Shown here: positions 54,004 through 54,625 of the stretch, piece after piece | How the letters are laid out: each line of letters begins with the position of its first letter | Numbering within the stretch: position 1 is the first letter of the stretch | Source of the DNA: Escherichia phage Turkey5 | Length of the DNA stretch: 64,000 bases | Reading direction: 5' to 3' (one strand) | Sequence record: PQ471516.1 | Made by a program: the position numbers and the translations under genes | Notes under the pieces: model-generated | Told to the model about the DNA's origin: nothing | The model's input: only the letters and a program-made list of their open reading frames with translations | Databases searched by the model: none

Positions 54004-54625
54004 ATCCTGAAAGGTTCCATAAGGAAATGATTAAGACCTAATCCACTCGAAAAGTAGAGGGTAGTTGAGTAGTCCTTTCAGTACGAACAGCAAAAGAAAC
54101 CCGTCAGATGTGGGCATAGTTTGAACCCCTCACGGCAATGCGGCTGTATAAAGAACTCCGATAAGCACACAGAGAGTTCCTAGATAGACATATAAGGATC
54201 GCACCTTACGAGATTTGCTAAGGGAGATTTCACTTTGAAATGCGGTCGTAATTTATACAATATAGTTGCGTCCAAAATTTGTGAAATCAAATACAAGTAC
54301 TGTTCATATGGTATTTGTATTATGTGTCGGGATGTTTAAGACCGACGACCGTTGCTACAAGAACCGCAATAGAGAGAAACAGAGCAACCCGCTTTCGCCC
54401 CAGTACTGGGAATTTGTGATATGAATATGTGAAGACCATCAGCGTCAAACTTTTTGTTCTTTCCCCTGCGGGGGGATGAAATATGTTCAAACAAATCCCG
54501 TCAATATTAATTAAACTACTAATAAAGTTGAATTAGACATGCGAAGCGTGTATAATTCAACCGATTTTTATTGAGTGCTAACGAGATAAAAGTCGTGTAC
54601 ATCCATTGATGTTTCCATAGGAATA
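54004..54625. other. ORF-free, GC-richer 0.62-kb island; candidate structured ncRNA or decayed insert
   Basis: No ORF of 60 aa or more in any frame in the supplied track; composition visibly differs from flanks; promoter-like TTGAAT N17 TATAAT at ~54527-54555. Confidence 0.3.

Follow-up and report, generated by a model that had tools for sequence, protein, structure and literature searches.

To our knowledge, few natural RNA classes longer than ~500 nt have as many conserved helices and invariant unpaired nucleotides as the element described here. Most such large RNAs act either as ribozymes or as the core of an RNA-protein machine, or belong to the self-assembling GOLLD, ROOL and OLE RNAs, which were solved recently. 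GOLLD and ROOL are large 'ornate' noncoding RNAs of phages and prophages (PMC12286853, PMC5737381). In the Pseudomonas jumbo phage PA5oct, four transcribed + strand regions of 236-619 nt devoid of open reading frames (ORFs) were described as 'putative lncRNAs' (long noncoding RNAs); two of these reach high abundance (2-5% of phage reads), and no function is known for the four (PMC7318152). Here, we analysed a 64,000-nt stretch of Escherichia phage Turkey5 (PQ471516.1), hereafter the window, in which an ORF-free region at positions 53952-54625 appears to be a self-contained + strand gene for a structured noncoding RNA of ~600 nt that is absent from Rfam 15. We consider an independent, trans-acting structured RNA gene to be a highly probable explanation of this locus as a whole, and we hold with good confidence that the gene represents a new family of such RNAs, for which we found no entry in Rfam 15 and no description in the literature as far as it could be searched.

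Judging from its sequence and predicted fold, this RNA is most comparable in kind to GOLLD and ROOL, while being unrelated to them by every test applied. It seems to belong to the large ornate phage-associated kind, being >500 nt long and multi-domain, with a pseudoknot, and borne by phages and mobile elements. Like GOLLD and ROOL, it reaches ~600 nt or more, combines many covarying helices and pseudoknotted pairing with numerous conserved unpaired nucleotides, and is carried as an independent gene without a dedicated protein partner and with no known function. In contrast, it matches neither their sequence nor their structure models, and it occurs in Gammaproteobacteria and their jumbo phages, whereas GOLLD and ROOL come from Lactobacillales, rumen and lake samples. 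It also differs from them by its 4-5 diverged copies per genome and by the absence of adjacent tRNA genes in the copies examined.

An initial annotation of this locus had listed a structured noncoding RNA among its candidates, had recognized no group I intron core or tRNA feature by eye, and had suggested an Rfam scan. Because the family is absent from Rfam, that scan returned no match to the window at the gathering threshold, and searches of the locus and nine orthologues at E-values up to 10 yielded scattered noise at differing places. Curated families that therefore do not include this RNA comprise GOLLD, ROOL, OLE, HEARO, group I and group II introns, RNase P, tmRNA and 6S. ARAGORN detected no tRNA or tmRNA, in agreement with the inspection by eye. 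A likeness to RNase P RNA through the motifs ACAGAGAGCAAAC, CAGUACGAA and UAGAUGA was rejected, as the local alignment with a manually entered E. coli M1 RNA sequence scored within the shuffled range.

Evidence for an RNA-level function comes from an alignment of 30 orthologues and paralogues (alignment A3), whose structure model was begun from RNAalifold and refined by eye. Across the 93 modelled pairs, 90.4% of the alignment cells are standard-paired, against 36.8-46.1% when the 3' partners were slid by 1-3 columns. Covariation against related phages, another check proposed in the initial annotation, was extensive: compensatory changes on both sides occurred in 65 of the 93 pairs compared to 30-37 pairs in the slid controls, and cells with double changes numbered 449 compared to 70-99. 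None of 500 shuffles reached any of the observed pairing measures. In helices H2, H10 and H11, pairing was 100% even though each position showed two or three types of pair. Furthermore, the modelled pairs contained 240 G.U or U.G cells but only 63 A.C or C.A cells; therefore, selection acts on the + strand RNA and not on the DNA or the opposite strand. Single-sequence folding gave z-scores of -2.98 for the + strand and -1.45 for the - strand, and recovered many of the modelled helices. Together with the promoter and terminator of its own and the more than 100 loci described below, covariation and the G.U bias strongly support the candidate RNA.

Sequence conservation is concentrated in the same alignment. 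With an overall identity of ~67%, the 30 copies share 106 invariant columns, 78 of which lie outside the modelled helices. Such a distribution is usual for RNAs that fold tightly in three dimensions or present a conserved surface for binding. Among the orthologues, invariant blocks alternate with hairpins that vary in sequence and length. Six conserved blocks lie wholly or partly outside helices: GATAGACATATA (54183-94), TAAGGGAG (54219-26), GACCGTTG (54347-54), AGAAAC..ACCCGCTT (54375-94), GGGGGGATGAAA (54470-81) and CCCGTCAA (54497-504), all on the + strand. Most of their positions are invariant in 30 of 30 copies.

The conserved core extends from 54003 to 54506 on the + strand and, according to the alignments and pair counts, folds into at least 16 helices and a pseudoknot. 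The alignment places H1 at 54007-14/54074-81, H1a at 54015-18/54023-26, H1b at 54038-48/54057-64, H2 at 54087-91/54143-47, H3 at 54101-04/54132-35, H4 at 54153-58/54174-79 and H5 at 54194-97/54204-07. The loop of H5 pairs with a segment located 40 nt downstream to form the pseudoknot (54198-203/54241-46), which covaries among copies as AUCGCA/UGCGAU, AUACUA/UAGUAU, AUAAC/GUUAU, AUGCA/UGCAU and GCCAAA/UUUGGC. Further downstream are H6 (54247-53/54264-70), H7 (54290-301/54310-21), H8 (54326-30/54342-46), H9 (54351-53/54362-64), H11 (54365-69/54414-18), H10 (54372-76/54392-96), H12 (54399-402/54407-10) and H14 (54460-66/54470-76). We also read from A3 a central sub-domain (54227-54287) that is closed by a long-range helix, AUUUCAC (54227-33)/GUGAAAU (~54281-87), and contains the pseudoknot's 3' strand, H6 and a conserved CGUCCAAAAUUUG. 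This helix is present in the single-sequence minimum-energy fold as well, and covaries in other copies (AUCUGG/CCAGAU, UUCUGA/UCAGAA, AACUGA/UCAGUU).

Variation among paralogues includes insertions of whole modules. A second occurrence of the hairpin-plus-CGUCCAAAAUU module is inserted in H12 of some paralogues; the GUACAAUAUAG..CCGUCCAAAAUU module is duplicated at the tip of H12 (A3 columns ~670-705) in the copy at 247 kb of phage 121Q and in four others. About a dozen paralogues contain a terminator-like hairpin followed by a U-run, such as AGAGACUUCAUUGUCUCUUUUUUAUU, inserted before the last conserved hairpin (A3 columns ~750-790). In some copies, one segment has two possible partners, a nearby one and a distant strand, a hint that the RNA may adopt alternative conformations. 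Three further interactions were considered and rejected: a kissing interaction through a self-complementary H7 tip loop and a pairing between the H6 and H3 loops were not consistently kept in the alignment, and the partner in the GAUAG/CUAUC long-range helix proposed by RNAalifold varies without compensation.

The interval 53952-54625 contains no ORF of 60 amino acids or more in any frame, as the initial annotation had claimed, the longest one there being 56 amino acids. At 674 nt, it is the longest such interval of a window otherwise dense with + strand coding genes, and it is bracketed by + strand ORFs of 315 amino acids (53004-53951) and 180 amino acids (54626-55168), the latter confirming a gene start immediately after the stretch. 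The next-longest ORF-poor stretches, 10430-11040 and 13062-13645, are arrays of genes of less than 60 amino acids, which makes 53952-54625 the only truly noncoding long stretch. Together with 9378-9778, these stretches carry very small genes (~47-59 amino acids), each preceded by a near-consensus TTGACA-17-TATAAT promoter in which an AGTACTG motif recurs, and look like an early region transcribed by the host polymerase; as arrays behind canonical promoters, they were rejected as RNA genes. Their promoters differ in type from those of the RNA genes, which combine a TGGAAC-like -35 element with TGnTATAAT.

The annotated difference in composition was confirmed in direction. GC content rises to 0.395 at 54004-54625 and to 0.415 in the core, compared to a mean of 0.358 (standard deviation 0.030) for the window, yet 12.8% of the equal-sized segments are at least as GC-rich, and the excess is modest. 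This weak excess, and the small coding sequences that several GenBank records annotate inside the region, are what could be said for non-functional DNA, whether a gene in decay, what is left of a mobile element or a terminator/promoter spacer, or for hidden small protein-coding genes. Such CDSs, labelled 'hypothetical protein', lie on either strand at non-equivalent positions; examples are g047 and g048 of fHe-Yen9-04 (432-563 and 701-913 of the fetched locus), CDS0607-0609 of Kaldavass (348-1006) and gp516 of 121Q (5800-5955, likewise in fetched loci), and they are probably spurious. The longest ORFs of 40 copies differ in position, strand and length, with none conserved in position, frame or strand, and the indels within conserved segments are not multiples of three. 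A short ORF starting from the conserved GGGGGGATGAAA was rejected, since the frame of the CGTCA block further downstream is not the same in the window as in phage GAP32. Given also the invariant columns, the widespread compensatory changes, and BLAST alignments that in distant genera cover the intergenic region and not the flanking genes, we regard non-functional DNA or small genes as having practically no chance of being right. The decayed mobile element or pseudogene listed in the initial annotation is rejected on the same grounds.

The RNA gene has promoter and terminator motifs of its own, which are conserved in homologues. A promoter scan revealed an extended -10 element, TGATATAAT (TG-n-TATAAT, 53959-53967, + strand), which begins 8 nt past the stop codon of the upstream gene and is likely the promoter of the RNA, with a transcription start predicted at about 53974, ~7 nt after the -10. 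TGnTATAAT is nearly invariant in 12 of 13 aligned orthologous intergenic regions, XaC1 having TATACT. All paralogues and bacterial copies likewise have TGnTATAAT or TATACT together with a TGGAAC/TGAAAC-like -35; paralogue promoters read TGGAAC, TGAAAC or TGGGAC, ~17 nt, then TGnTATAAT, ~10 nt 5' of the conserved start ACAAYCCUG. At the other end, a hairpin formed by GUUGAAUUAGACAUGC-GAA-GCGUGUAUAAUUCAAC (54527-54561) and followed by UUUUUAUU (54565-54572) constitutes, by its fold, a predicted intrinsic terminator of the RNA gene (54527-54572, + strand). Other genera have an equivalent, covarying 3' hairpin (GUAAAUCAC/GUGAUUUAC, GUAAAUUCA/UGAAUUUAC and GUAAAUCUC/GAGAUUUAC). A candidate TTGAAT-17-TATAAT promoter for the downstream operon (54528-54556) was rejected, as the match consists of the two arms of this terminator hairpin.

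Between the -10 element and the core, a terminator scan and folding identified a 12-bp hairpin (53970-53997) followed by a T7 run (53970-54002, + strand), the predicted intrinsic terminator of the upstream 315-amino-acid gene. Its stem changes in sequence among orthologues while its pairing is kept. In full, the hairpin has a stability of -15.5 kcal/mol, which drops to -7.0 kcal/mol if the RNA starts at 53974; because they would hold only this truncated, weaker hairpin, the RNA's own transcripts should be stopped much less than incoming ones. Both terminators reported in the initial annotation are thus present, the second as the 54527-54561 hairpin and its TTTTTATT run. Its left boundary, 54004, matches the start of the conserved core, but the unit that functions as a gene extends a little further, over about 53959-54572. 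The -10 element of the window copy stands directly 5' of the hairpin of the upstream gene's terminator (53959-54002), and in GAP32-like phages, before GAP32_067 (~294-345 of the fetched GAP32 locus), a hairpin GGAACAUC..GAUGUUCC lies inside the spacer of a TGGAAC-18-TATAAT promoter. Because promoter and terminator overlap in both cases, the same DNA could halt transcription arriving from upstream and initiate it anew.

By its matches, the window belongs with the Asteriusvirus jumbo phages: the region shares 98.5% identity with Escherichia phage vB_EcoM_JNE01 and 85-87% with 121Q, PBECO4, G17 and further members of Asteriusvirus. BLAST alignments to genera further away, at 65-75% identity, are confined to the noncoding stretch (query positions 40-625 of 801), and no DNA-level alignment extends over the flanking genes. 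These matches include Salmonella phages Munch and 7t3, Klebsiella phage fENko-Kae01, Yersinia phage fHe-Yen9-04, Erwinia pEa_SNUABM phages, Serratia phage BF, Cronobacter phage GAP32, Pectobacterium phage CBB and Xanthomonas phages XbC2 and XaC1. The element occupies the same site, between GAP32_066-like and GAP32_067-like genes, in 11 of the 12 genomes fetched; the XaC1 copy may be flanked by different neighbours.

BLAST found 4-5 places per genome in all 61 matching RaK2/GAP32/CBB/121Q-like genomes. We built a covariance model of the 3' domain of the RNA, R1, which scores 170.8 bits at 54333-54506 of the window, and used it to scan five 50-kb stretches of 121Q (~250 of 348.5 kb). R1 and the orthologue together yielded four dispersed copies, all on the + strand, at about 90.3, 192.8, 247.4 and 326.6 kb, the same number as the BLAST places in this genome. 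RaK2 (Alcyoneusvirus) carries a divergent copy scoring 88 bits. Neither self-BLAST nor R1 detected further copies inside the 64-kb window.

PA5oct is a distant relative in the same jumbo-phage clade and also has four + strand RNAs, an analogy and not a demonstrated homology. No homology to PA5oct ncRNA001 or ncRNA002 was detected, the best R1 match (10 bits, E = 0.23) lying outside both RNAs, and the GATAGACATATA block gave chance-level matches only in the region of these two RNAs. That weak match falls in an unannotated ~900-nt ORF-free gap (MK797984.1, 12,809-13,721) behind a strong TTGACA-17-TATAAT promoter and separate from the four annotated ncRNAs; this gap may represent another noncoding RNA.

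The arrangement of the copies bears on whether the RNA acts in cis, as the leader of the downstream operon. Such a leader, either a riboswitch-like sensor or a processive antiterminator resembling HK022 put, would control readthrough of the 54527-54572 terminator into the genes from 54626. The RNA does lie directly 5' of a co-oriented gene run, with no clear separate promoter at 54573-54625, and a target in host RNA polymerase would explain the strong conservation across hosts. However, cis-regulatory leaders are always upstream and co-oriented, and this is not the case here: the 326.6-kb copy of 121Q, on the + strand, stands between two - strand genes and is antisense to both, the RNA converges on the next gene in several bacterial islands, and the genes 3' of different copies are unrelated to one another. 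In addition, GAP32-like phages have a separate TGGAAC-18-TATAAT promoter 3' of the RNA, and the size and complexity of the element are far beyond those of known cis regulators. We therefore give very little credence to a cis-acting leader. Retention of the RNA where no downstream gene can be regulated, as in the 326.6-kb copy and the convergent island copies, instead indicates autonomy.

Beyond the jumbo phages, IMG/VR, metagenomes and a set of one genome per prokaryotic species were scanned with a two-block pattern derived from invariant positions (GACCGT, 16-26 nt, AGAAACNGNNNNACCCGCTT; the second block alone for IMG/VR), and matches were checked with R1. IMG/VR provided 27 R1-confirmed loci on contigs of ~350-380 kb or on shorter ones (16-174 kb), possibly pieces of genomes of that size, and 75 of 77 metagenomic loci were confirmed. 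Among 13 loci in the one-genome-per-species set, nine were confirmed at 96-131 bits. Eight of these nine are in Enterobacterales assemblies (a Serratia fonticola chromosome, Serratia sp., Silvania, Citrobacter amalonaticus, Enterobacter chinensis, Buttiauxella and two others); the ninth is on a 2.8-kb contig labelled Clostridium. The family comprises more than 100 loci. The element is present in 2 of 5,426 complete E. coli genomes and in none of the 72,556 plasmids of PLSDB.

In bacteria, the RNA is apparently located at the edge of a mobile island: a single copy adjoins an integrase in every bacterial and metagenomic neighbourhood examined, with the same promoter type and all conserved blocks retained. 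In Citrobacter, Enterobacter, Silvania and metagenome contigs, a large serine recombinase is followed by the RNA, one contig carrying a tyrosine integrase-sized ORF instead; in Enterobacteriaceae RIT714, a tyrosine integrase precedes it. In most islands of the first of these two groups, the RNA and a CI-like repressor gene converge, with conserved genes of unknown function beyond; genes of this kind, encoding a 286-amino-acid and an LprI-like 138-amino-acid protein, lie next to the repressor gene. The S. fonticola island comprises a large serine recombinase and two ParB/RepB-like genes, then the RNA and a duplicated rof next to tilS. The two near-identical copies of rof (Rho-termination modulator) in NZ_CP183218.1, at 4775-5038 and 5227-5490 of the fetched locus, flank the island end, probably because insertion took place in or next to rof and the island carried a rof copy with it.

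Two bacterial islands carry candidate or known defence genes. In E. coli LR-29-1 (NZ_AP027515.1), an 11-kb island between ffs and ybaA contains integrase fragments, IS3, the RNA and PDC-M45. The integrase is disrupted by IS3, and a cluster at 22999-24730 of the fetched locus encodes a dual-OB protein, a DUF488 protein and a DUF4326 protein, two of the three matching the PADLOC candidate defence system PDC-M45 (E-values of 1e-58 to 1e-69). The second, on metagenome contig PPYE01644173.1, is a serine-recombinase island in which the RNA is accompanied by genes for a UvrD-like helicase, a DarT homologue and a 544-amino-acid DarG-like ADP-ribosylglycohydrolase (292-3998 of the fetched locus). Genes beside the RNA in different contexts are not homologous to each other and only the integrase recurs; a conserved protein partner was rejected for this reason. 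A neighbour-joining tree computed without support values divides the bacterial copies into three or more groups and places two of these groups among phage paralogue clades. Such interleaving of phage and island copies suggests repeated transfer between them.

Dispersed copies in phages and single copies in islands could also be accounted for by RNA-primed replication origins, in which a folded RNA made by the host polymerase stays hybridized to the DNA and acts as the primer for its synthesis. Several dispersed, co-oriented copies would meet the needs of a 350-kb genome, and an excised island could replicate from its single copy with host enzymes alone. Precedents are ColE1 RNA II and the R-loop transcripts of T4 oriF and oriG, which are made by the host polymerase, depend on their fold and need no element-encoded protein. 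The jumbo-phage RNA resembles them as a host-polymerase transcript of similar length (~550-600 nt) without a dedicated protein partner, in four co-oriented copies dispersed around 121Q; moreover, the phages hold T4-like replication genes, including RNase H and UvsW, and the DNA 3' of the core is AT-rich. Unlike these transcripts, it is absent from plasmids, where origins of this type would be expected, ends at its own intrinsic terminator, shows far more elaborate conserved tertiary-type features, including unpaired invariant columns and a covarying pseudoknot that point to a compact fold, and, unlike RNA II, has no antisense regulator that we could see. Cumulative GC skew climbs steadily across the locus without inflection, and the islands examined contain no recognizable replication module. 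With neither a PLSDB match nor a skew inflection to place it among ColE1-type or R-loop origins, we consider such an origin very unlikely. The replication or packaging-related cis element suggested by the initial annotation is likewise unsupported by the plasmid search, the RNA-level selection and the GC skew.

An independent, trans-acting RNA gene remains the explanation that we favour, and a mechanism can be proposed for it. Host sigma-70 RNA polymerase would make the RNA, at high dosage in the phage, and the folded RNA would act in trans and not in cis on a neighbouring gene. As no linked partner protein was found and the element has apparently moved between phages and islands, it would need only components that all of these hosts have in common. 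A stoichiometric role, more than a catalytic one, is suggested by the high gene dosage in the phage. The RNA would most likely bind or sequester a conserved cellular factor, or form an RNA-only assembly, in a contest between phage, host and mobile island. 6S and CsrB-type RNAs offer a parallel, being abundant, trans-acting RNAs that titrate a conserved host protein; titration would agree with a high gene dosage and with a gene that stands apart from its neighbours. The jumbo-phage RNA differs from 6S by lacking a long imperfect duplex with a central bubble, from CsrB by lacking an array of repeated GGA hairpins, and from both by lacking an Rfam match.

A role as a sequestering agent or decoy in phage-host-island conflict is, at best, a tentative proposal. 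Slightly more speculative is the fuller picture of an undescribed ornate RNA class that moved repeatedly between virulent jumbo phages and integrase-bearing defence islands as an RNA-only weapon or decoy, which would titrate a conserved host or immune factor, or whose island copy would compete with the phage copies. Within the same reading, the RNA might alternatively be a self-assembling RNA particle or a new ribozyme; we judge self-assembly of the ROOL/GOLLD type to be unlikely, and a ribozyme somewhat more so.

Several observations weigh against our interpretation of the locus. The structure was drawn from the same sequences on which it was evaluated, so that its percentage of paired cells is somewhat too high when set against the slid controls, and helices without variation, GAC/GUC for example, are beyond test by covariation. 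The terminator-like hairpin between promoter and core of the window copy could attenuate the RNA's own transcripts, and the internal hairpin and U-run that precede the last conserved hairpin in some paralogues make the mature 3' end uncertain there. We found no RNA-seq data for this phage group in the literature, and the ends and abundance of the RNA are deduced from motifs. The tree is a neighbour-joining one whose groups carry no support values.

The proteins encoded on either side of the RNA gene in the window have no Pfam domains. The second gene 3' of the RNA (55185-55712) encodes a Dam-family DNA N6-adenine methyltransferase (PF05869, E = 2.7e-33) and is followed by a gene with a weak cytidylyltransferase-like match.

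The immediate consequence of our analysis is a corrected annotation, as the small CDSs recorded in GenBank inside the element are probably spurious. Furthermore, the RNA is carried by cultivable phages of E. coli, Salmonella, Klebsiella, Erwinia and Serratia and is thus open to experiment. The apparent multi-copy state in jumbo phages suggests that high dosage matters, and the sharing of the RNA with bacterial islands, two of them with known or candidate defence genes, makes a role in the conflict between phage and host directly testable.

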